Shown here piece by piece: positions 6,112-33,397 of a stretch of DNA of 64,000 nt; position 1 is the first letter of the stretch, and every line of letters starts with the position of its first letter. The notes beneath the pieces are model-generated. The model was given only the letters and a program-made list of their open reading frames with translations, did no database searches and had not been told where the DNA came from. The translations under genes and the position numbers were made by a program. Location: the IMG/VR virus record IMGVR_UViG_3300045988_154997, positions 32,001 through 96,000 of that record, one strand, 5' to 3'. The DNA comes from a virus. Taxonomy: Duplodnaviria; Heunggongvirae; Uroviricota; Caudoviricetes.

Positions 6112-6498
6112 ATGTCTGATAACAAGATTGAATTTATAGAAAGTCGCTACGCTGCTTTTATCGCAGGGTTGATTGAATCCTCACCTATGAGCCAGGCCCA
6201 GATAGCCAAAACAATTGGGTATAAAAACGCCAACAACCTTTCTTTAATTAAAAGCGGCAAAATTCCTTTGCCTATCGATAAGGTTCGTCCGCTGGCGCTG
6301 GCACTGGGTATTGAGCCAAGTCGTCTTATGATGATGGTGCTGGAAGAACGCCAACCCGAACTCGCAGCATTTTTATACAAAGAAGGCACTGCTCCTCTTA
6401 ACGAGGACGAAAAACAGGTTCTTGCTGCATATAACGAGCGATTCGGTAAAGAGAAAGGCGCATCACAAAAGGTTGTTGAGGCCATAAAGTCTCTATGA
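6112..6498 (+). CDS. HTH (Cro/CI-type) DNA-binding protein
   Basis: SQAQIAKTIGYKNANNLSLIKSGK resembles an XRE-type helix-turn-helix; ATG at 6112 with AAGG RBS preferred over the track's GTG at 6106. Confidence 0.5.
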   Translation: MSDNKIEFIESRYAAFIAGLIESSPMSQAQIAKTIGYKNANNLSLIKSGKIPLPIDKVRPLALALGIEPSRLMMMVLEERQPELAAFLYKEGTAPLNEDEKQVLAAYNERFGKEKGASQKVVEAIKSL

Positions 6499-7596
6499 AA
6501 AATTTACACGAATAAGCTCTGTTGATAGACGATCTCCCTTAAATTTGTGGTCAATTTCGTCTAAATCCGGTTGCTCTACGATTGATGCGATGTACGTCGA
6601 GAAACTTTCTAAGGCGTCTCGCATCTCGTCCATATAATCGTGCCGGTCGTAGACCCGATCTATCCCCTCAAGACTGTGGTTCATGATTTTACGTGATACC
6701 TCCTGGCTTATGCCTAATGCTGGGAAGTAACTACGCGCAGTACGGCGCAAATCTCGGGGTGTAAATGGCTCAAGCTCCATCAGTTCTGGTCGTTCCAGAA
6801 TACGACGTAATGCCTGGGCTATTGCCACTTTAGACATAGGAAGGTCTTTCCCGATTTTTTTATTCGAAGGCACGAGCCACTGGCTGTCTTTACCATATTC
6901 GAACAACTCTTCAATACATGTGCGCATTAATGAGCTTAAAGGCAGAGAATGCTCACGGGCAGATTTGTTCCTCTTGCCTTGATTCCAAACCCCACGCTTA
7001 AGATTGAACTCACTTTTTTTAGCCCGCAGTACTTCGTCAGGTCGTCTTGCGGATACAAGACATAGCCTGGCCGCCCATTTTGTACCAGCACACACATTGA
7101 AGTAGTCCCATATATTCCAGAACACCCATACCTCTGCGTCGGTCAGCTTCCGCTCGCGAGGTGTGGGCTTTGCGCCACCGGCAACTTTGTTAAGTGACAT
7201 ATCGTTTAACGGTGACACGTCGATCATCCCCTGGAAGGCGCACCAGCTGAGGAACTGCTTCATCAGAGAGAAAACGCGGCGACCCATAACAATTTTGCCA
7301 TCCAGTATTAGTGGGTTGACCAGTTGGTTCACCATGAACCTATTAATATCACTTACTTTTACATCGGCAATGTGCGGCAAAACATGTATCAAAATACAAT
7401 GAACAGCGATCTCTGGCCGACGTCTTGTTATCAGCAGAGATAAGCGAGTGAATAACATGAATGCGTCCGAGAATCTCATGTCATTGCTGACCTGGGAGAT
7501 CATAACGGCCTGCATTTGAGATGCTCTTTCGAGATACTCAATCGCCTCTTTTGAGGTGTTCTCCGCAGCGCGTGCTCTGTCAAAGCTATTTTTCAT
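6493..7596 (-). CDS. int: tyrosine site-specific recombinase (integrase/resolvase family)
   Basis: C-terminal catalytic signature DLRRTARS ... NHSLEGIDRVYDRHDY (R..T.R / H / R..Y pattern of tyrosine recombinases); 367 aa. Confidence 0.75.
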   Translation of the reverse strand: MKNSFDRARAAENTSKEAIEYLERASQMQAVMISQVSNDMRFSDAFMLFTRLSLLITRRRPEIAVHCILIHVLPHIADVKVSDINRFMVNQLVNPLILDGKIVMGRRVFSLMKQFLSWCAFQGMIDVSPLNDMSLNKVAGGAKPTPRERKLTDAEVWVFWNIWDYFNVCAGTKWAARLCLVSARRPDEVLRAKKSEFNLKRGVWNQGKRNKSAREHSLPLSSLMRTCIEELFEYGKDSQWLVPSNKKIGKDLPMSKVAIAQALRRILERPELMELEPFTPRDLRRTARSYFPALGISQEVSRKIMNHSLEGIDRVYDRHDYMDEMRDALESFSTYIASIVEQPDLDEIDHKFKGDRLSTELIRVNFS

Positions 7597-7804: not shown

Positions 7805-8794
7805 TTGATTTACTTGAAAATGGCTGGTTTTATAGTATTGTCATGCGATCGCTGCAACAGGATAAGAAAAATGATAAAAGAGACACCGGAAGTCAACACG
7901 CTATCTGAGTTATTAGGGGCTACGCCTCCCAAACCTCAGCTAGTAGTGACGACTAAAGGTATTGATTTAGGTCTGGATATCTCCCTCGGAGATTGGAATA
8001 ACTCTTCATTATTATCACGACCTTCAGCTTTGTTAGCAATTGAGCATGGGGAAAATTTATTTGAACTCATGGATAAAGAGTTAGGTCTTGTTGGTATTAA
8101 TGAAGAAGGAGTGATCAAGTCAAACATCATTATCGAACTAGATCCCCATAAAACAACTATGAGAATATTAGGTAAAATTGCGGAAGCACTCATTGTTGAA
8201 GAATGTGAAAAAAACGCGAAACAAAATGAAAACTGGGCATTATTAGCAAAGAGATATACCCCTTTCACAGATAGTTTGTCTAATTATAAAGCTGTTGGGA
8301 CTGGACTCAACTATACGAAAATTAACTATCCTACTAAATATCAACCTAATGATACTCAACGGGACATTGTGTGGATAGACAAACGAGACCCACTTTCTCA
8401 ATTACTTATTTCTGCTCCAACGTCGAATTCAGGTATACAGGCTGGAATTCAAGTGAAGGTCAGTGCAAATGGTCTTAACTATCTATCACCAATGGATTTT
8501 TCTAGCAGAAGATATGAGGTCCCTATTGTTTACTTTGATTTAAATAATGATTTTTTTGAAATTCAGATGAAGATAGTGAACTCAGGAATTGATTCGGTTT
8601 ATGGAATGGATTATCACCGTGGTAGAAACATTTCTCCTGAAATACATGAAAAACTATGTGCATATTATAACCTTATATACTCCATTATCATTGGTGATAT
8701 GAAATTAGAGGCTCTGTTACTAAATGAAGAGGCACTGAAAGGGTATGTGACTGAGATTAAAGATAGACAAGGTAAAAGAATAATCGTGACGTGA
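7805..8794 (+). CDS. hypothetical protein (329 aa), AT-rich cargo gene
   Basis: Long ORF in a roughly 35-38% GC segment; no recognisable motif; true start may be an internal Met. Confidence 0.5.
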   Translation: MIYLKMAGFIVLSCDRCNRIRKMIKETPEVNTLSELLGATPPKPQLVVTTKGIDLGLDISLGDWNNSSLLSRPSALLAIEHGENLFELMDKELGLVGINEEGVIKSNIIIELDPHKTTMRILGKIAEALIVEECEKNAKQNENWALLAKRYTPFTDSLSNYKAVGTGLNYTKINYPTKYQPNDTQRDIVWIDKRDPLSQLLISAPTSNSGIQAGIQVKVSANGLNYLSPMDFSSRRYEVPIVYFDLNNDFFEIQMKIVNSGIDSVYGMDYHRGRNISPEIHEKLCAYYNLIYSIIIGDMKLEALLLNEEALKGYVTEIKDRQGKRIIVT

Positions 8795-9521: not shown

Positions 9522-10343
9522 ATGACTATCCTTGAAAATCCTGATGCGAATGTTGAATCTGTTTATAGTCTTCATCCAACCACGTTGTTTCATTTTACAA
9601 AAAACGAAGATGCTTTCTATAGCATATTGGCTGAGAAATATTTTAAACCATTTCTTGCTCGCGAGGAAATAAGAGGAGTCGGGGGACGCAGGAGGTTTGC
9701 AGTACCAATGGTATCGTTTTGTGACATAAAACTATCACAAATCAGAGATCATAGCGGAAAATATGGAGAATTCGGTCTTGGGCTAACTAAGTCTTGGGCG
9801 GAAAAGAAAGGTCTACACCCAGTTCTATATATGAATAAGAGTAGTGAAATATTTTCTAAATACAATGCCAGAATTCGACTTATTAAAAATAAGTTGGTGC
9901 CGCTTTGGAAGGCTAGAGGAAATTTAGATACCAAAAACAGAATAGAGTTTGAGAAATTGAAAGCAGAATATTCTGATCTATATAATTTACTGCGTTATAT
10001 GAAAAATTACAGAGGCAAGCTAGAGCGAAAAGATAATAAAACAATAGAGAATTATATATATGCAGACGAGAAAGAGTGGCGTTATGTGCCAGCTCCTTTT
10101 ATTGGTGATTTATGGCCTAGTCTGAGTTTGGAGCGTGTTATCACTTCTGATGACAAAGCAAAAATTAGCTCAAAATTTTCAAAGTTTGGCATTGATTTTG
10201 AGTTCAATGATATAAAATATATACTTATACCTAAAGAACAACATATCCAAAAGCTAATTAACTTTCTCTCAGGTTTAGATGGATTTGAATCTTCAATTAT
10301 TAGCAAAATTCTGACCATGGATAAAGTAAAGCAAGATTTTTAA
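9522..10343 (+). CDS. DUF2971/Abi-like protein (tentative family assignment)
   Basis: ATG at 9522 with AAGGTG RBS. Motifs LFHFTK...FYSIL, FAVPMVSFCD...HSGKYGEFGLGL and C-terminal EKEWRYV echo the LYKY / MWSHY..HKGFCIGF / E.EWR pattern of the DUF2971-like protein at 23116-23835. AT-rich. Confidence 0.45.
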   Translation: MTILENPDANVESVYSLHPTTLFHFTKNEDAFYSILAEKYFKPFLAREEIRGVGGRRRFAVPMVSFCDIKLSQIRDHSGKYGEFGLGLTKSWAEKKGLHPVLYMNKSSEIFSKYNARIRLIKNKLVPLWKARGNLDTKNRIEFEKLKAEYSDLYNLLRYMKNYRGKLERKDNKTIENYIYADEKEWRYVPAPFIGDLWPSLSLERVITSDDKAKISSKFSKFGIDFEFNDIKYILIPKEQHIQKLINFLSGLDGFESSIISKILTMDKVKQDF

Positions 10344-10369
10344 TTTTTGGTTTAACGGGAGCCTAATTA

Positions 10370-11581
10370 GTGTCAATATTTTTAAGCGAAAAGGAAATGC
10401 AAAATTGGATAATTGACAAATTATCTGATCAAGATGGATTATATAATTCAATCATCAATATTGATAAATTAAATGAATTTAATCCGAAAAGACCCGAAGA
10501 GAAAAAAATTAAGGAGAGTTATCAGTTTTGTTTAAAGAACATAACATTGTTACATTTAATGACAGATGATGAGAATATCTCAGCAACAAAATCTGAGATA
10601 TTAAGACCTGATGTCGTTGCTTATTCAACAGAGAATGAATCCTTAGTTCTTATTGAGTTAAAAAATTTTTCAACACCAACAAGGGAAGCTGGAACTGAGC
10701 TAGTGGCATATGCTGCGGAACTAAAAAGTTACTTGTCATACTTGTCTGATGGAGATATTACCAATGTACTTATATCACCTGACTGGCCACCTTTGGTTAG
10801 ACACTTTATTTTTAATATGATCGTGTGGCAGAAGAAAAACTTTCTATGTTTAGAACCTTGCTATGATTTACAAGGTAACGTATCACTTACTCCTTTAGAT
10901 ATTAATAAATTAGTTATTGCGGAAGAAGCACTCAAGTTCTCATTTCGTCATCTTGGCGGGTTTCATATATGTTTGTATGATGATGAAATGTATAATCAAC
11001 CGACTTCCACTTCTCGTTTACATTCGAAATTGAATGTTATTAAAGCCAGCATGGCAAAAATGTCCTCAGACGGTGAAAAGACTAATAGCCATGGGTTTGC
11101 TATTTTATGTAGAAATTTGAACGAGAGAACTTTAGCACCATATACGATTACTCTAGTTAATGTTTCTGCGTTTTCTTCCATAGAGCGATACTTTCATTCG
11201 CCACAAATATCCAATGCTTCTCAACTCCCTAGAATAGGACAAAAAATTTATGACATTTACACTCATTACCAACCATCAGGTTTTGGGGCATCAATGTCGA
11301 AAATTTACAATTCTGGGAGGGCATATTTAGAAAAAATTAATTGCAAGCCGCGGATCGAGGTTATAGACACCTGGGATGTATTGCAAGTACATACACATGC
11401 GCCTTATATGGAAATGGTTCATATTGAAACGTGGGGAGTTTTTAAAGAAAAATTGATTGAAGGTCTAAATGAATGTTATGAGGATGAATATTACACACCT
11501 GATTTTAACGATGTAGATTTTTGCATGGTGTGTATTGAATCCTTAATTGACCAGAATTATGAATTTATAAAACTTTTTTGA
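10370..11581 (+). CDS. PD-(D/E)xK nuclease-like protein with unknown C-terminal domain
   Basis: N-terminal ILRPDVVAYSTENESLVLIELKNFS fits a D ... E-x-K restriction-endonuclease-fold signature; GTG start at 10370 with GGGAG RBS; 403 aa; about 33% GC. Confidence 0.5.
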   Translation: MSIFLSEKEMQNWIIDKLSDQDGLYNSIINIDKLNEFNPKRPEEKKIKESYQFCLKNITLLHLMTDDENISATKSEILRPDVVAYSTENESLVLIELKNFSTPTREAGTELVAYAAELKSYLSYLSDGDITNVLISPDWPPLVRHFIFNMIVWQKKNFLCLEPCYDLQGNVSLTPLDINKLVIAEEALKFSFRHLGGFHICLYDDEMYNQPTSTSRLHSKLNVIKASMAKMSSDGEKTNSHGFAILCRNLNERTLAPYTITLVNVSAFSSIERYFHSPQISNASQLPRIGQKIYDIYTHYQPSGFGASMSKIYNSGRAYLEKINCKPRIEVIDTWDVLQVHTHAPYMEMVHIETWGVFKEKLIEGLNECYEDEYYTPDFNDVDFCMVCIESLIDQNYEFIKLF

Positions 11582-11759: not shown

Positions 11760-11846
11760 TGGCGGAGAGTAATGGAATCGAACCATCATCGTTTGCACAA
11801 TGGGACGATTTTCAAGACCGCTTGAGCACCATGCTCCCTACTCTCC
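11760..11846 (-). tRNA. tRNA-Ser (anticodon TGA), type II with long variable arm, CCA encoded
   Basis: Minus-strand sequence GGAGAGT...CGGTCTTGAAAATCG...GGTTCGATTCC...ACTCTCCGCCA: 7-bp acceptor stem, anticodon loop CTTGAAA, T-loop TTCGATT. Confidence 0.7.
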
Positions 11847-12070
11847 GGCCGTTGTGGTGGCCGGTACTGAATCTCCGGCATACGGTGCAGCCAATTAGGA
11901 CTACGGACGATCACCGCTCGCGAAAGGGAAGATTTGCGGCCGCATTTCCCTAACATCCAAGAAAGCTATCGCATCAGTCTGCGAATCCACCACAACGGTA
12001 AGATCACTACCTTTCGACCAGTCATTGTGCACATGAACGACGATTAACCGTAATGATCTTATCGTTGTAT

Positions 12071-12147
12071 TGGTGCCGGTTAACGGACTCGAACCGCTGA
12101 CATCCTGCTTACAAGGCAGGCGCTCTACCAACTGAGCTAAACCGGCA
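12071..12147 (-). tRNA. tRNA-Thr (anticodon TGT), CCA encoded
   Basis: TGCCGGT-TT-AGCTCAGTTGGTAGAGC-G-CCTGC-CTTGTAA-GCAGG-ATGTC-AGCGG-TTCGAGT-CCGTT-AACCGGCA-CCA; canonical cloverleaf. Confidence 0.85.
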
Positions 12148-12150
12148 ATT

Positions 12151-12237
12151 TGGTGGGGAGTGATGGAGTCGAACCACCCGAGTCGCAATGACAGTAGATT
12201 TACAGTCTGTCCCGCTACCTCTACGGACTAACTCCCC
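12151..12237 (-). tRNA. tRNA-Tyr (anticodon GTA), type II, CCA encoded; two non-canonical pairs in the anticodon stem
   Basis: Anticodon arm and variable arm AGACTGTAAATCT.C.GTCAT closely resemble E. coli tRNA-Tyr as recalled from memory; acceptor GGGGAGT/ACTCCCC; T-loop TTCGACT. Confidence 0.65.
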
Positions 12238-12242
12238 TAAAT

Positions 12243-12317
12243 TGGCGATGGTGGGTGGATTCGAACCACCGACCAGTTGGTTAACAGCCAACTGCTCTAC
12301 CGCTGAGCTACACCATC
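12243..12317 (-). tRNA. tRNA-Asn (anticodon GTT), CCA encoded
   Basis: GATGGTG-TA-GCTC-AGCGGTA-GAGC-A-GTTGG-CTGTTAA-CCAAC-TGGTC-GGTGG-TTCGAAT-CCACC-CACCATC-G-CCA. Confidence 0.85.
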
Positions 12318-20938: not shown

Positions 20939-21679
20939 TTAATTAGATAGGGGATCAATAAACCGCCGTGCTTCTTCCAGTTCTTCTGGAAAGTGGGCGG
21001 AAATAAGGCGCTCTGGAACGATTTCCATTAGCCAGATAGCAGAGAAAATTGCGCGTATGCGCTTGCTGCGGGGGATGATGCGCAAACGCTCCAGAATCCA
21101 CTCAAAATAGCTTTCCTGAATCGGGTTGAACTGCATGTCTCCCATATGCTTAAAGCTAACCAGAGAGTCATCCAGACGGGTTGTTGCGCGTCTGGATAAT
21201 TTCTCTTCGAATATCTCAATCAGTTCTGGCTGCCATAAATGCTGTGGGCGCGGCAACTTGTCCCACAGACGCCGTGCAGCTGCGGAAAGAACCGTGGAGA
21301 TAAAGTAGTCGTATGAACAGCAATAGCGATCAGCAAACTGGCGTGCTTTCCATAGCGACGTTTTATTGGCAGTCGACAACTCCTGATAAGGCAGGCGTTT
21401 TAACCCGGTGGTGAACGGAGCTGTTTCAAAGTGTTCGCGACCGTGCGTCAGCATGATATTTGAGTACTGACGTTTGTATGCCTCCGTAAAAAGACAGGTG
21501 GCCATGAGAGGATGCATGTCGCGGTAATCAAACCACTTCGTCTCGAAGAGTTCAGCCTCGTCATTGCAGCGCGACAAACCAATGTTTTCAGCGACCCACT
21601 TGTCCATAACAGCGGTATTCCACTCTGTCATGAAGTCGTACTGGTCGTTGTCAATGGTATCAAAAAAGATTTGGCTCAT
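20939..21679 (-). CDS. hypothetical protein (about 246 aa from the ATG at 21679)
   Basis: AGGTGAG RBS precedes the ATG at 21679; track start at 21688 is a GTG. Confidence 0.5.
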   Translation of the reverse strand: MSQIFFDTIDNDQYDFMTEWNTAVMDKWVAENIGLSRCNDEAELFETKWFDYRDMHPLMATCLFTEAYKRQYSNIMLTHGREHFETAPFTTGLKRLPYQELSTANKTSLWKARQFADRYCCSYDYFISTVLSAAARRLWDKLPRPQHLWQPELIEIFEEKLSRRATTRLDDSLVSFKHMGDMQFNPIQESYFEWILERLRIIPRSKRIRAIFSAIWLMEIVPERLISAHFPEELEEARRFIDPLSN

Positions 21680-21798
21680 GTGGCTCACCTGATAGGTAGT
21701 TACTTACTTATTGCAATGAGCGGATGATAGCGACTGGTGGCAGTTTTTGGAAGTGGAAACGGAAGGGAATGTGTCTGGGAAGTTGGCATAGAAAAAGA

Positions 21799-21851
21799 CC
21801 TGCTTCCGTATAAATAATAATAAGTAACTTAGTATTTATATACAGAAGCAG
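21799..21851. promoter_or_regulatory. about 54-bp conserved intergenic element with terminal inverted repeats (CCTGCTTC ... GAAGCAGG); copy 1 of 2
   Basis: Near-identical copy at 55859-55912 upstream of terS; contains TAAGTAACTTA palindrome and TATATAC. Confidence 0.5.
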
Positions 21852-21876
21852 GTTCCAAATTCAACCAGCAGGATGC

Positions 21877-23073
21877 TTAAACATCTTTTAGAAAGCCTGG
21901 AAACCAATGTTTCATGATATACCTAAAATGTGCTCTAGTTGGTTCAAAAACCTGTCTAGATACCAGCGCTCCATCAGGATGATTCTGAACAGACTGTTCT
22001 TTTTCCATATCGTAAAAATTATGAGTTATCTCTGGGGGGAAGAAAATATTTCTGTCCAGTGGCACTGTCGCAAAAGGATTGTAGTAAATATGAAGGCCGT
22101 CAAAGTGCGTCTCTTCATGAGCAGTGGAATGGCAAACTACAATATCCGCACCAGTGACTTCGTTATTTAAAAAATGCCGATATGTAGTGATGAAATGATC
22201 AGGACCTATCCTTTGTGTGTGCTTTCCCTCGTTTTTCATCCCTTCATTGGCGATGAAATCATTCACATCAATGGCTCGATATCGTGTTGACCTTACATAT
22301 CTACCGATACCGCTTTGAACCACGGCTTTTCCAAAAGTGCCGGTGGTGGAGAAAATAACCGCACTTATTTCTTTATATGAGTCGTTAGTAAATATACCTA
22401 ATGGAATTTCAACGTCTTCATTCTTTTTGATTGAGGTAACTTTAGTTTGGCTGCCAGTCACCAAATTTCTGGTGGTAGGTTCCTCAATGCCAAACAACAC
22501 TCGATTGATGATTGTGTTATTTTGAGACAATGATAAATCGGAGTCAAAGGGTGCAAGCGCCAGAACAAACGGCTTATTAACTACATGAGACATCGTAGAG
22601 TACGGGAATTTTTTGCCATTAACTCCTGTAAAAAGATCATGTTTGTCTTTGATTTTTCCGATTAATTTTAGCGTTGATTGATGTTTGAATTTTGATTCGC
22701 TAAAAAGAGCACCTGCAGGTGGATTATGTGGCCGATCTGATATCACAGCTTCGACGTTAAACTGGTAGCCTGACGGTGTAGTAACACAGAAATCGGGACT
22801 GTCTTTTGTGTAGTCGACAGAATAATCGAGACGAATAAACATTTCGTTCAGATACAATTCCCATAAGGCGGAATTGAAGGTTGTCTGAAACTCTTTAACG
22901 AATTTAGTCTGCTCACCGCTACGCTCCAGTAACCCACGCCCCCACGACTGTATCACTTCTCTTACTGGAGCATATGTATTATCTTGATAAATCTGTTTAA
23001 AAGATTCGTGCAGCTTGTTTTTTGCTATTTTGGTTGAGAACAAATCCATTATTAGCCTCACTAACCAGTTCAA
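21877..23073 (-). CDS. hypothetical protein (398 aa), AT-rich
   Basis: ORF only; no recognisable motif; adjacent to the DUF2971-like gene. Confidence 0.5.
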   Translation of the reverse strand: MNWLVRLIMDLFSTKIAKNKLHESFKQIYQDNTYAPVREVIQSWGRGLLERSGEQTKFVKEFQTTFNSALWELYLNEMFIRLDYSVDYTKDSPDFCVTTPSGYQFNVEAVISDRPHNPPAGALFSESKFKHQSTLKLIGKIKDKHDLFTGVNGKKFPYSTMSHVVNKPFVLALAPFDSDLSLSQNNTIINRVLFGIEEPTTRNLVTGSQTKVTSIKKNEDVEIPLGIFTNDSYKEISAVIFSTTGTFGKAVVQSGIGRYVRSTRYRAIDVNDFIANEGMKNEGKHTQRIGPDHFITTYRHFLNNEVTGADIVVCHSTAHEETHFDGLHIYYNPFATVPLDRNIFFPPEITHNFYDMEKEQSVQNHPDGALVSRQVFEPTRAHFRYIMKHWFPGFLKDV

Positions 23074-23115
23074 TAAGAAAAGCGCCCAACATAATCATTT
23101 GAGGAAAGTCTGGAG

Positions 23116-23835
23116 CTACTTCAGCTTTTCTTTGACAAGAAGATAACCATCATCAGGTGTACTCATTTTGTAAACCTCGATGCTCGTGTCTAGCTGTGTC
23201 CGGGCATATTCTTCTACTTCAGGAGAAACGTTATACCCAAGAATGATCTCTCTAATATATTTCTTATCAAATGCCTGAGCGCCTATTTTTTTAGTAATAA
23301 CCCTTTGTTCTTCCTCATATTTCCAGCATTCGTGCTTGTAGAAAAAGAGCTTATCAAAAAGTACCTTAAACTCATCTGTAACTTCATCGAACACGGGAAC
23401 AGAAGGTATATATTTCACATTATCAAAGCTGTGATACCCCTCAATAGAGGTAACAAAATCATCATCAAAGCCTATGCAGAAACCTTTATGCGACACTGAG
23501 TAATGTGACCACATCAAGATGTTATCTTCGTTTGGTGACAAGCACACCACACCAAAAGCCCCTAATGATTCTTTCCGCAAATCCACAGCCAACGATTTTG
23601 CAGCTTCAGGAGCTACAGCATCCCAGTCTTCAAAGGAAAAATCCTTACATCCATTGTCTTCAAAGTGTTTCCGGCGCTCCACTTCTGTACCTCCCATCGT
23701 TATCGAAACTTTGAACTCTGATGGGTCGTTGAATGAAGAAGGTGCGCTAGCAGAGATAGTGCCGTCCTCTACAAACCGTTTGAGGTTACGTAACACTTTT
23801 TGCGAATCTTCACTTCCAATATATTTGTAGAGCAT
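23116..23835 (-). CDS. DUF2971-family protein
   Basis: From the ATG at 23835: MLYKYIGSEDSQKVL...SFNDPSEF, ILMWSHYSVSHKGFCIGFD, ECWKYEEEQRV, the signature pattern I recall for DUF2971. Track start at 23874 is a TTG. Confidence 0.55.
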   Translation of the reverse strand: MLYKYIGSEDSQKVLRNLKRFVEDGTISASAPSSFNDPSEFKVSITMGGTEVERRKHFEDNGCKDFSFEDWDAVAPEAAKSLAVDLRKESLGAFGVVCLSPNEDNILMWSHYSVSHKGFCIGFDDDFVTSIEGYHSFDNVKYIPSVPVFDEVTDEFKVLFDKLFFYKHECWKYEEEQRVITKKIGAQAFDKKYIREIILGYNVSPEVEEYARTQLDTSIEVYKMSTPDDGYLLVKEKLK

Positions 23836-23879
23836 TAGGGAACCTATAGAAAGAGGTGCCAAGCAGCACCTCAATAAAA

Positions 23880-24239
23880 TTAACCTTTCTTCATCAACTC
23901 GCGTTTGATTTCATCGGTACGCATCGTGACGTCGGCAGCAGTGATCGCCTCGTTAAGTTTCACGATATCCTCGATTTCCTGCGGCGACTTCTCTGCCAGA
24001 TGGAAAATAGCAGCACGAATCACATCAGAGCGGGTGAATTTCTCGAAGCGAGGGATGAACTTCATCATCTCCAGCAGTTCGAAGTATTCGTCTTCCAGTG
24101 ACATTGTGCGGCTTTTAATTTTCTCTTTGCCACGAGTCGGGCGTCCCTGTGGTCTGACTGGTTGGCGCAAAGGAGTTGTGTTCTTAGCCGGTGCATCAGG
24201 CTCTTTGCGCTTTGCTAGGTCACCCATTTTCATGGACAT
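23880..24239 (-). CDS. small partition partner of ParA (ParG-like ribbon-helix-helix candidate)
   Basis: 119 aa, basic disordered N-terminus and C-terminal MSLEDEYFELLEMM ... RSDVIRAAIFHLAE; directly downstream of parA with a 1-nt overlap. Confidence 0.45.
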   Translation of the reverse strand: MSMKMGDLAKRKEPDAPAKNTTPLRQPVRPQGRPTRGKEKIKSRTMSLEDEYFELLEMMKFIPRFEKFTRSDVIRAAIFHLAEKSPQEIEDIVKLNEAITAADVTMRTDEIKRELMKKG

Positions 24240-24907
24240 TATTCTTCTTCCTCCAGACTCAACAGATAATCTACAAATTCTTCAAACTCGGCTTCCGCCT
24301 TTTTGTCGCGCTCGCTACCGGTCATTTCAAAGATAGAACGACCAGACTCTTCCGCATCATCGTAGACGTTGCGGTTATATAGATTGACAGGCGCAGACTC
24401 GATGCCAAACGTCTCGACAATCTCTTTAGCCGCCAGAATGCGAGACACTTGTGATGGCAAAGCCGGGCACTGGTTCATGACCGCGCGGACCTTCACTTTA
24501 TCGTTTACATTGCGAACATTGTCGATAATAGGATCGATGTCACGTAAAGATTTCAAATCACGACGCTTAGGACGCAGCGGGATAATGATAACGTCAGCCA
24601 TCAGCATCGCTTGTCGCTGAATTTCGGAGTCGAAGCCACCAGCATCTACCACTACATACTCAGCTCTACCCTGAAGCGATTTTAGGTGCTTAATGATGTC
24701 ATCCTGAACGTATGCAAAAGGAATCAGCTCAAGGTCTTCGTTCTGTCGACGGTCTTCACACCAGCTCGTTGTCGTGCGCTGAATATCTATATCGGTGATA
24801 TAAACCTTCTTCTTCTTTTTGACTTTCAGGCAAACGGCAATTTGCTGGGCAACGGTGGATTTGCCAGGCCCGCCCTTTGTGCCGCCAACCACAAAGATCT
24901 TGGTCAT
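24239..24907 (-). CDS. parA: ParA/MinD-family partition ATPase (small type Ib-like)
   Basis: Deviant Walker A GGTKGGPGKST near the N-terminus; 222 aa without an N-terminal HTH extension. Confidence 0.8.
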   Translation of the reverse strand: MTKIFVVGGTKGGPGKSTVAQQIAVCLKVKKKKKVYITDIDIQRTTTSWCEDRRQNEDLELIPFAYVQDDIIKHLKSLQGRAEYVVVDAGGFDSEIQRQAMLMADVIIIPLRPKRRDLKSLRDIDPIIDNVRNVNDKVKVRAVMNQCPALPSQVSRILAAKEIVETFGIESAPVNLYNRNVYDDAEESGRSIFEMTGSERDKKAEAEFEEFVDYLLSLEEEE

Positions 24908-32000: not shown

Positions 32001-33397
32001 ACAACACCTTTAGTTGTAAGGCTTGCGTCTTCCATCGCAACTGCACCGGCAATCTCTTCAGCACGATCAGCAGCAGCTTCCGCACGGGTCGCAGCGGATT
32101 CAGCAGCAGTTTTGCTCTGAGATGCTGCCGTCGCACTGCCTGCCGCCTCTGTTGCTTTCGTGGATGCCGTCGTGGCGCTGCCCTTCGCTGCTGACGCCTG
32201 TCTGGTCGCCTCATCTTTTGAAGCAGACGCAGATGATGCCGATGACGCCGCCGAACTGGCGGACGATGCGGCAGCCGTTTTTGAGGATTCTGCGCTGGTT
32301 TCCGACGCTTTCGCGTTCGTTTCGGATGTCTTCGCTGCGGAAGCAGACCTCGCTGCTGCGCTGGCCTGTTCAGTGGCTTCGCCAGCCTTCGTTGTGGCTG
32401 TTGAAGCAGACGATGCGGCACTTTCTGCCGATTTTCCGGCGGCGGTGGCACTGGCTGAGGCCTGCCCGGCACTTGTTGACGCGGCACTGGCAGACGACGC
32501 AGCCGCTGTTTTTGAGCCTGCCGCAGCCGAGGCGCTCTGTCCCGCTGCCGTTTCAGAAGACCTGGCGTTCGTCTCGGACGTTTTTGCCGCCTTCGCGGAA
32601 TTTCCTGCCGCCGTTGCCGAGGAAGCGGCATTACTGGCGCTCGAGGCTGCGCTCGTTTCTGATGATTTCGCTGCCTCTTTTGAGGCCGCCGCATCCCGGG
32701 CTGAGGTGGCAGCTTCTGACGCCTTCGTGGTCGCGGTGGATGCAGAAGTGGCTGCAGATTTTTGTGACGCTGCAGCATTCGTTTCAGACGTTTTCGCGGC
32801 ACCGGCACTGGTGGCCGCCGCGCTTTTTGAGGACTCTGCAGCGGATGCACTTTGAGACGCTTGAGAGGCTTTTTCTCCAGCGGTATTGGCGCTTTCTGCT
32901 GCTGCGGCAGCACTGGCCGCCGCCTCACGAGCTTTGTCGCCAGCAGCATCAATCGCGTCAGTGTTATTTTTATACCACTCAACGTTTTCGTTGTGCTCGT
33001 TGACGATCTGCATTAGCGGCTTAACGGTCACTTCTGTACCGTCTTCACGCTCGATTGTCACCTCATCCAGAGCAGTCAACCAACTGCGCATGGACTTGGA
33101 ATCAGCCGACATACGCGACATTAGTGCTGTAAAGCGCGCGCTAAACTGTGTTAAGTCGCCTTCATAGGTCGTAATGATTCGGCACGGAACTTCAGACTGA
33201 GTTTCGCCGGTATAAGGTTCTGAGAGAACAATGTTCGTATCACTGGTTACGCGCTTGATCTCATACAGCTTATTGTCGGGGCCAATGACGATCATCCCCG
33301 GCAACACACCATTAGCTGTTACGTTCCAGGCTGTCCCTGCCCCAACCAGAGTATTGCTGCCCTGTGTAAATGTGATAGTACCTTCCCTGTACCACAT
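29099..33397 (-). CDS. tail fiber protein (1432 aa) with Ala/Ser-rich repeat region, fibre repeats and C-terminal intramolecular-chaperone-like domain
   Basis: Repeated GN(A/S)ATATKLQTAR...GVxFDGSxDI fibre motifs; long AS-rich low-complexity segment; C-terminal DIETLQDRYADELLSLRPVWYRSI...GLIAEEV resembles self-cleaving chaperone domains of tail fibres/tailspikes. Confidence 0.8.
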   Translation of the reverse strand: MWYREGTITFTQGSNTLVGAGTAWNVTANGVLPGMIVIGPDNKLYEIKRVTSDTNIVLSEPYTGETQSEVPCRIITTYEGDLTQFSARFTALMSRMSADSKSMRSWLTALDEVTIEREDGTEVTVKPLMQIVNEHNENVEWYKNNTDAIDAAGDKAREAAASAAAAAESANTAGEKASQASQSASAAESSKSAAATSAGAAKTSETNAAASQKSAATSASTATTKASEAATSARDAAASKEAAKSSETSAASSASNAASSATAAGNSAKAAKTSETNARSSETAAGQSASAAAGSKTAAASSASAASTSAGQASASATAAGKSAESAASSASTATTKAGEATEQASAAARSASAAKTSETNAKASETSAESSKTAAASSASSAASSASSASASKDEATRQASAAKGSATTASTKATEAAGSATAASQSKTAAESAATRAEAAADRAEEIAGAVAMEDASLTTKGVVKLSSAVDSTSESLAATPKAVKVVNDNANSRVPSNRKINGKALTADITLTPKDIGTLNSITMSFSGGAGWFKLATVTMPQASSIVYIALIGGAGYNVGSPHQAGISELVLRAGNGNPKGITGALWKRTAVGLTNFAWINTSGDTYDIYVEIGNYATSVNIHWDCTANASVSIYTSPTYSASKPSSVTDGVVYTMYSTHQKPTPLDIGALPTTGGTVSGPLSVTGGITGTLNGNASTATKLQTARSIGGVGFDGSANINLPGVNTTGNQNTTGNAATATKLQTARKISGVPFDGSTDITLTAAHVAAFARRATGSYADADGGVPWNAESGAYNVTRTGDSYILANFYTGVGSCRTLQIKAHYKNGGLFYRSSRDGYGFESGWEQVYTTGFMPQPADINAPTAAAGWLNSGNGTAFTTAQFITWLNNQGAFTNKHWIARCSWTYANNNYIDDTGCGRIDLSGSVIEVFSNKATSHYTIRVTTTTTSGHGGVNNAEFIYVYNGSDYAPGWRRSYNTRNKPTASDVGALPLSGGTLSGGLTSSGEIVSKYANGFRIAYGNYGFFIRNDGGSTYFMLTASGDTLGSWNSLRPIIINNSSGVVSIGNGLNVTGGVNGSLNGNASTATKLQTARNINGVKFDGSGDININTLVSRGRVTALSGSTQGTAGIQMYEAYNNSYPTTYGNVLHMKGASAAGEGELLIGWSGTSGAHAPVFIRSRRDTTDAAWSAWAQVYTAKDSIPGVNTTGNQNTTGNAATATKLQTARKIAGVAFDGSADITLTAANLNAYTKTEVTNLLSSYASRSSLTGYSGNLDIIAETLVVKSGGSGGFAIWDIGTTTSGANMYIDPNPGINTVWRSTSSRRYKKDIETLQDRYADELLSLRPVWYRSICRGDRKDWGYYGLIAEEVGEIAPQYVHWREPTNNDSPGDISSNGMVAEGVMYERLVVPLIHHIQQLTKRVEELETKLNSPKE

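Follow-up and report, generated by a model that had tools for sequence, protein, structure and literature searches.

A par-proximal hotspot of SSU5-like phage-plasmids and its head-to-tail pair of candidate defence genes, DUF2971 and PD-T7-5

The partition cassette of an SSU5-like phage-plasmid is followed on the minus strand by two genes, one for a protein of the DUF2971 family and the other for a protein that had been left without an assignment. What are these genes, and do their products act together or separately? They are located in a stretch of 64,000 nucleotides (nt), positions 32,001 to 96,000 of IMG/VR record IMGVR_UViG_3300045988_154997, which is referred to here, at its full length, as the window. 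A preliminary description made from the letters alone listed them as minus-strand open reading frames (ORFs) of 239 amino acids (aa), from 23835 to 23116, and of 398 aa, from a TTG codon at 23073 to 21877. Both ORFs exist as described, with a caveat on the start of the longer one that is taken up below. The gene order on the minus strand is parA, a parB-like gene for a 119-aa protein, DUF2971, PD-T7-5 (our assignment for the 398-aa ORF), a hairpin, a gene for a 249-aa backbone protein, and a DnaB-like helicase gene. The ca. 2.0-kb segment at 21854–23879 consists of the two co-oriented genes, head to tail. We consider it probable that this segment represents the cargo of a defence hotspot prone to recombination, in which two autonomous single-gene anti-phage modules have been stacked.

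The region 21700–24300 was compared with the Escherichia phages CMS-2020a, PhiR41_1, and Cyrano (ca. 94%), with Klebsiella phages, and with SSU5, and the match was confined to both ends, covering 16–22% of the query. The suggestion that the pair is accessory cargo is thus upheld, since other SSU5-like phages match the flanks alone. By local blastn, the homology ends on the left at 21852–21864, just beyond the hairpin, in Cyrano, PhiR41_1, SSU5, and Klebsiella phage-plasmids. On the right it resumes at 23879–23884, the stop codon of the parB-like gene, in PhiR41_1, SSU5, and Klebsiella phage GArcari, and elsewhere at 23812 (Cyrano), 23850 (a Salmonella element), or 23710 (Klebsiella L100). The content between these limits varies. 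DUF2971 alone is found in phage Cyrano and in Klebsiella phage-plasmids, while SSU5 has DUF2971 together with two unrelated genes; these three copies are 41–46% identical to that of the window. PD-T7-5 alone is found in Salmonella, Cronobacter, and Enterobacter phage-plasmids, and the Salmonella element precisely lacks the segment 23054–23849. PhiR41_1 has in this slot, on the opposite strand, a homologue of PD-T4-3 (L083:1767–2534; PADLOC E = 1.6e-23), which supports the view that the slot is a defence hotspot, and GArcari has an unrelated gene for a 363-aa protein. The par-proximal slot is a mix-and-match defence hotspot of SSU5-like phage-plasmids.

The left edge of the slot is a conserved inverted repeat (21799–21853, minus strand), a terminator-like hairpin followed by CUUUUUCU, which lies 24 nt past the stop codon of PD-T7-5. 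Its RNA fold has a free energy of −27.6 kcal/mol (z = −4.45), and none of 200 shuffled sequences folded as well; given this strong fold and the U tract, the hairpin has the look of a terminator that closes the transcription unit made up of par and the cargo. The right edge is the partition cassette (23880–24907, minus strand), which has ParA-type Pfam matches and consists of parA, from 24907 to 24239, and the 119-aa parB-like gene, from 24239 to 23880. The pair had been placed between the inverted repeat and parA, and this is borne out, with the parB-like gene preceding parA. The G + C content (GC) of the cargo is 40.1%, compared with 45.9–47.8% in the flanks and 45.7% in the window, so that the AT-richness noted earlier is real but modest. 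The hotspots of P2 and P4 (Rousset et al. 2022, Vassallo et al. 2022) similarly have a fixed slot, conserved backbone borders, swapped defence genes, and AT-rich cargo. Unlike these, the slot described here is in a phage-plasmid, directly downstream of a partition operon, and is bordered by a conserved terminator hairpin.

What is the 398-aa protein? It had been described as unassigned, but PADLOC assigns it to PD-T7-5. The PADLOC PD-T7-5 model PDLC04110 matches it with E = 1.5e-139, residues 9–379 of 398 aligning with profile positions 1–342 of 346, and the PD-T7-1 model gives a weaker match to the same ORF. Judged by these profile matches, the protein is PD-T7-5, a known single-gene anti-phage nuclease. 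The true start of the gene is probably the ATG at 23049, and the TTG at 23073 would lie 8 codons too early: the ATG has GAGG 7 nt upstream, all 24 of the aligned homologues start with M-(D/N/S)-L-F at its position, and the RefSeq annotation of PD-T7-5 here has 390 aa. From this ATG, the gene (21877–23049, minus strand) codes for 390 aa, with a predicted PD-(D/E)xK nuclease fold in the N-terminal part and a beta-rich C-terminal domain. The family keeps about 50% identity from Escherichia coli to Rhizobium, and E64, D86, and E100 are invariant. Sequence searches of PDB chains with the PD-T7-5 and DUF2971 profiles gave nothing meaningful, and a search of a viral fold library gave uncharacterised proteins only.

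PD-T7-5 was recovered by functional selection against T7 and placed in the class “Nuclease” (Vassallo et al. 2022, Nat Microbiol; PMC9519451 Tables S1–S2). The published clone contains one coding sequence of 1.17 kb with 119–143 bp on either side (PMC9519451 Table S2), and PD-T7-5 by itself restricts T7 (PMC9519451). Later papers give PD-(D/E)xK or RmuC-like predictions for it (PMC10952713, PMC10270631), and a 2025 preprint has already listed it as one of the defence systems that SSU5 clade-J phage-plasmids carry in E. coli and Shigella (bioRxiv 10.1101/2025.09.12.675607). The protein of the window resembles the published one in its full-length match to the hidden Markov model (HMM), its 390 aa, its predicted PD-(D/E)xK nuclease, its E. 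coli origin, and its location on a mobile element. However, the gene is found here directly downstream of an ADP-ribosyltransferase (ART)-like gene, which is absent from the single-gene description.

This upstream gene (23116–23835, minus strand) codes for the 239-aa protein. The protein matches Pfam DUF2971 (PF11185) with E = 1.2e-6 and 30.2 bits, above the gathering cut-off of 22, and four PDC-S31 models of PADLOC, the best with E = 2.6e-38. It has all of the residues that are invariant in 46 DUF2971 sequences, namely Y3, N36-D37-P38, W109, H111, Y112, H116, G118, K167, W171, Y173, E174, and R178, as well as E176, which is at least 90% conserved across the 46 sequences. By these sequence criteria it is a genuine member of DUF2971, in agreement with the preliminary description. 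Of the motifs on which that assignment had been based, LYKY (residues 2–5), SFNDPSEF (34–41), MWSHY (108–112), and HKGFCIGF (116–123) are present, but the last one reads Y-E-E-E-Q-R (173–178), an ExExR motif without the W.

An ART fold is predicted for the protein, and the model most resembles the DarT DNA ADP-ribosyltransferases. From the H-Y-E triad, Y112 and E174-x-E176 are present, but the first strand, L-Y-K-Y, is without a conserved His. This matches the poor conservation of ART motif I, and a published classification has DUF2971 as a member of the ART HYE clade, with DarT and AbiGi close by (PMC12522546). We regard the 239-aa protein as a candidate for a DarT-like defence protein with an ART fold. 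DarT of DarTG ADP-ribosylates thymidine or guanosine in single-stranded DNA; the 239-aa protein is 9–17% identical to DarT and, unlike it, has no conserved motif-I histidine and has large helical inserts. DUF2971 is flanked by the parB-like gene and by PD-T7-5; a DarG macrodomain antitoxin was not found beside it, and there is no Pfam Macro match. The lactococcal protein Aristaios, whose sole domain is DUF2971, has been validated as a single-gene abortive infection (Abi) system and blocks both transcription and protein production of the phage (PMC11381338, PMC13064643, PMC12967558). Aristaios (Grafakou et al. 2024) shares with the 239-aa protein PF11185, an ART-like predicted fold, and a single-gene, plasmid-borne setting. 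However, it has 316 aa and a Gram-positive host, and the known likeness in sequence is the shared PF11185 membership.

The DUF2971 gene contains an A7 homopolymer (23286–23292, minus strand; codons 182–184), which differs in length in two variants, P0262 and P0260. Loss of one A leads to an immediate TAG and a protein of 183 aa, and gain of one A leads to a tail NRRSGI and a protein of 189 aa. Both shortened variants retain all of the conserved catalytic motifs and adjoin an intact PD-T7-5, which is weak evidence against obligate pairing. The tract is either a slippage-prone off-switch or a homopolymer sequencing error.

How often do the two genes occur together? Among 5426 complete E. coli genomes, 13 have the exact pair (99–100% identical), which is plasmid-borne in every one of them, on 12 plasmids of about 111–113 kb and one of 240 kb; PLSDB has 11 plasmids with the exact pair. 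In PLSDB, the gene for the 249-aa backbone protein was found in 764 plasmids (tblastn), DUF2971 relatives in 236, including pHCM2 of S. Typhi, and PD-T7-5 relatives in 38, 13 of which are enterobacterial phage-plasmids. Only 11 plasmids, which are near-clonal, have both genes. Furthermore, a PD-T7-5 homologue with 72% nucleotide identity is found on the chromosome of 136 of the 5426 E. coli genomes, and in strain 118UI, the one of these that was inspected, it is solitary in an integrase island beside ssrA. In other species, 80 PD-T7-5 loci were searched with DUF2971 HMMs, and with phmmer using AbiGi and DUF2971 seeds, and none has a DUF2971 or AbiGi ORF within 5 kb. The genes next upstream on the same strand, 43 in all, are heterogeneous by Pfam (methylases, type I restriction-modification subunits, SIR2, HEPN, integrase, and others), and no ART family is among them.

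DUF2971 is also found without PD-T7-5 outside the hotspot. In P2-like prophages of E. coli (L096–L099:4001–4726), a 51%-identical gene is solitary, with the tail-fibre-assembly gene on one side and the tail-sheath gene on the other, and its protein is indexed in 138 blocks of the collection; another DUF2971 gene is found in a Pantoea element. No degraded PD-T7-5 or 403-aa partner (the latter a protein encoded beside AbiGi in the window) was detected by tblastn at the solitary DUF2971 and AbiGi loci. Diverged pairs of the 398-aa family and DUF2971 do exist elsewhere, but the pairing is not obligate, and each gene is far commoner without the other. Given the mixing and matching of the slot and the 80 PD-T7-5 loci without an ART-like neighbour, autonomous stacking is the best reading of the pair.

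Do the two proteins nevertheless cooperate? They might form one two-component system of AbiG-like layout, an ART-like sensor or modifier with a PD-(D/E)xK nuclease effector, each partly active alone. The ART might mark or stall phage DNA for the nuclease, or one protein might regulate the other or broaden its range. We judge this to be unlikely, but several observations do weigh against simple stacking. The two genes move in company more than would be expected of simple stacking. Diverged copies of both (DUF2971 55%, PD-T7-5 76%) are present on a plasmid that has 98–100% identity to the window in the ParA, ParB-like, DnaB, and 249-aa proteins. A third allele pair (DUF2971 73%, PD-T7-5 80%, with a spacer of ca. 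67 nt; L112:1696–3658, L113:486–2448) lies in L112 away from any par hotspot, downstream of a gene for a CbtA-family toxin, and its presence there with the same spacer indicates that both genes can move as a unit. Order, orientation, and a spacer of 42–68 nt are shared by three diverged alleles and recur in two contexts that are unrelated, which favours cooperation. So does AbiGi, which is located 66–89 nt upstream of a 76–77%-identical PD-T7-5 in prophages of Proteus terrae (L089:3187–5176) and Yersinia enterocolitica (L090–L092:3249–5182) whose surroundings differ. The window itself has a second ART-like gene followed by a gene for a ca. 400-aa PD-(D/E)xK-like protein, at 9522–11581, and the sizes of the lactococcal AbiGi and AbiGii reportedly resemble 239 and 390 aa. 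Finally, the published PD-T7-5 clone is either this allele or the 76%-identical chromosomal one, PDC-S31 is a computational defence candidate, and any enzymatic activity, trigger, and phage range of this DUF2971 subfamily are putative.

Against cooperation, PD-T7-5 functions as a single cloned gene, and solitary copies of each gene, in this very hotspot as well as elsewhere, far outnumber the pairs. C-terminally truncated DUF2971 variants with their catalytic motifs intact lie beside intact PD-T7-5, AbiGi relatives are themselves frequently solitary, and neither protein matches the AbiGi or AbiGii models. Furthermore, if a whole hotspot is exchanged by way of the conserved flanks, neighbouring genes would be carried along whatever their function, so unrelated genes would be co-moved anyway and autonomous stacking is the most likely explanation. 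The three alleles of the pair, its second context, and AbiGi upstream of PD-T7-5 leave some room for cooperation.

The genes at 9522–11581 (plus strand) form a separate locus from the DUF2971/PD-T7-5 pair, with a 273-aa protein (9522–10343) and a 403-aa PD-(D/E)xK-like protein (10370–11581). The motif pattern of the 239-aa protein had been thought to recur in the 273-aa protein, and two paralogous accessory modules had been proposed. A similar order of motifs is indeed seen (LFHFT, PMVSF, FGLGL, EKEWRY), but the protein is AbiGi (Pfam E = 4.1e-25, PADLOC E = 5.5e-47) and not DUF2971; it has no Pfam match to DUF2971, and custom DUF2971 HMMs gave no match at E ≤ 1e-3. The Pfam and PADLOC models for AbiGi and AbiGii, in turn, gave no match to the 239-aa and 398-aa proteins. 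The family of the 403-aa protein (PHROG 30092) has weak HSDR_N_2 and YhcG_C matches, with P80-D81, E96, and K98 invariant, and the protein has no PADLOC or AbiGii match. Relatives of ca. 700 aa also occur in this family.

Paralogy of the two modules was rejected. Nothing was found by BLASTP, whether the 239-aa protein was compared with the 273-aa one (E = 3.3) or the 390-aa protein with the 403-aa one. The alignment by hhalign of 46 DUF2971 with 35 AbiGi sequences has a probability of 1.8%, and that of 25 PD-T7-5 with 31 sequences of the 403-aa family a probability of 0.2%, with a generic ‘PDF’ nuclease motif as the sole aligned stretch. Thus, the modules are at most analogous in layout, an ART-like protein and a ca. 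400-aa PD-(D/E)xK-like protein, and not paralogous. The AbiGi module is an island of 33.6% GC, bordered by an integrase gene (6493–7596) and a cluster of tRNA genes for Ser, Thr, Tyr, and Asn (11760–12317). It was found on 18 E. coli plasmids, several of them without the DUF2971/PD-T7-5 pair, and is distributed independently.

A wider form of cooperation would make an ART-like protein, DUF2971 or AbiGi, and a PD-T7-5-type nuclease the cooperating parts of a recurrent mobile two-gene cassette, with PD-T7-5 as the AbiGii-like partner in a broader ‘ART + nuclease’ class. AbiG of Lactococcus (AbiGi and AbiGii) likewise has two genes, for ca. 240 and then ca. 400 aa, and AbiGi is in the ART superfamily near DUF2971 (PMC12522546). 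However, the 239-aa protein has no match to AbiGi and the 390-aa protein none to AbiGii, and we think this wider form even less likely than cooperation of the present pair. If it were true, the ART could modify phage DNA by ADP-ribosylation and in this way create or expose the substrate of the nuclease, or it could be a back-up when phages inhibit the nuclease, and this phage-plasmid would have two versions of the class.

Could DUF2971 instead serve the plasmid itself? Phage T4 uses the ARTs Alt and Mod on host targets, and a role of DUF2971 in plasmid maintenance or lifestyle, by addiction or exclusion tied to parAB or as an ART acting on host targets in lytic growth, with PD-T7-5 as an unrelated insertion, would suit the occurrence of its relatives, in every case close to parAB, in 236 of about 764 SSU5-type plasmids, pHCM2 among them, the 4-nt overlap of DUF2971 with the parB-like stop codon in Cyrano, and the lack of a promoter match between parB and the DUF2971 start in the window; but it is very improbable, given that DUF2971 is missing from two-thirds of the plasmids with this backbone, has been swapped for PD-T4-3 and other defence genes, is 41–55% identical between plasmids with flanking proteins 83–100% identical, as is typical of arms-race cargo, and has a close relative that is solitary in the moron slot of P2-like prophages, while the sole tested DUF2971 protein is an Abi defence and PADLOC lists the subfamily as defence-island-associated.

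How might the two genes function as autonomous, stacked modules? The PD-(D/E)xK domain of PD-T7-5 would cleave phage nucleic acid after infection is sensed, and its beta-rich C-terminal domain would presumably be responsible for sensing or targeting. By analogy with DarT and Aristaios, the DUF2971 protein would probably use NAD+ for ADP-ribosylation upon infection, with a nucleic acid or some part of the gene-expression machinery as its target. This modification would block phage transcription or replication, leading to abortive infection.

The arrangement of the genes suggests how they may be transcribed. A short, GC-rich hairpin with a U-rich tail was found by the terminator scan at 23853–23872 (minus strand), between the stop codon of the parB-like gene and the start codon of DUF2971; it folds with −14.6 kcal/mol (z = −2.47) and is possibly a partial terminator. 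A consensus scan gave no promoter match in the window between the parB-like gene and the DUF2971 start. In Cyrano, the 4-nt overlap suggests that DUF2971 is translationally coupled to the par operon. In the window, DUF2971 may be transcribed from the par operon through the weak hairpin. The spacer between DUF2971 and PD-T7-5 (23050–23115, minus strand; 66 nt) contains the GAGG ribosome-binding site of PD-T7-5, and a stable structure was not found in it (fold z = +0.84). The consensus scan also gave two sigma-70-like promoter candidates upstream of PD-T7-5, in the 3′ end of the DUF2971 gene (23270–23243 and 23192–23165, minus strand). Note that the promoter and terminator scans gave no more sites than in shuffled sequence, so that the promoter assignments are suggestions. 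We infer that PD-T7-5 additionally has its own promoter in this 3′ end, which would fit a published clone that works with just 119–143 bp of upstream DNA, and both transcripts would terminate at the conserved hairpin at 21799–21853.

SSU5-like phage-plasmids occur commonly in E. coli, Shigella, Salmonella, and Klebsiella of clinical origin, and the par-adjacent cargo helps to decide which other phages, including therapeutic ones, infect their hosts. A pair that would have been listed as a hypothetical protein and a DUF now consists of two named defence candidates. Furthermore, a precise slot has been defined, from the parB stop codon to the conserved terminator hairpin, in which PD-T4-3, PD-T7-5, and DUF2971 genes are exchanged. 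PD-T7-5 is already known as a defence system, and the DUF2971 protein adds a member to a family of candidates described before. What is mildly new is the hotspot next to par, with its precise boundaries, and the recurrence of an ART followed by PD-T7-5, and nothing else; the locus is mostly ordinary. If the DarT-like ART and PD-T7-5 do not cooperate, it is another small defence island on a mobile element. For the preliminary description, then, the observation is confirmed and the interpretation partly supported.

The remaining features of the locus belong to its surroundings. The proteins of the partition cassette are 100% identical to those of Cyrano and of the E. coli variant plasmid. The 119-aa protein of Cyrano (L084:2474–2833), which is identical to the parB-like protein of the window, is annotated as ‘RelE/ParE putative toxin’ and has no match to a toxin family. 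On the left flank, the gene for the 249-aa hypothetical backbone protein (20939–21688, minus strand; PHROG 2500) is located upstream of the DnaB-like helicase gene. On the chromosome of E. coli NCTC9064 (L106:3934–5944), a CP4-like island with radC, yeeU, and cbtA contains a PD-T7-5 homologue (PADLOC E = 4.8e-135) and, before it in the same orientation, a gene for a 241-aa Peptidase_C92 protein, a YiiX-like permuted papain. Beside the integrase gene that borders the AbiGi island, a 329-aa ORF (7805–8794), a cargo gene, has 36% GC and no Pfam, PADLOC, or PHROG match. At 32001–33000, the window has 60% GC and an AT skew of −0.33, a composition far from that of the rest of the window.

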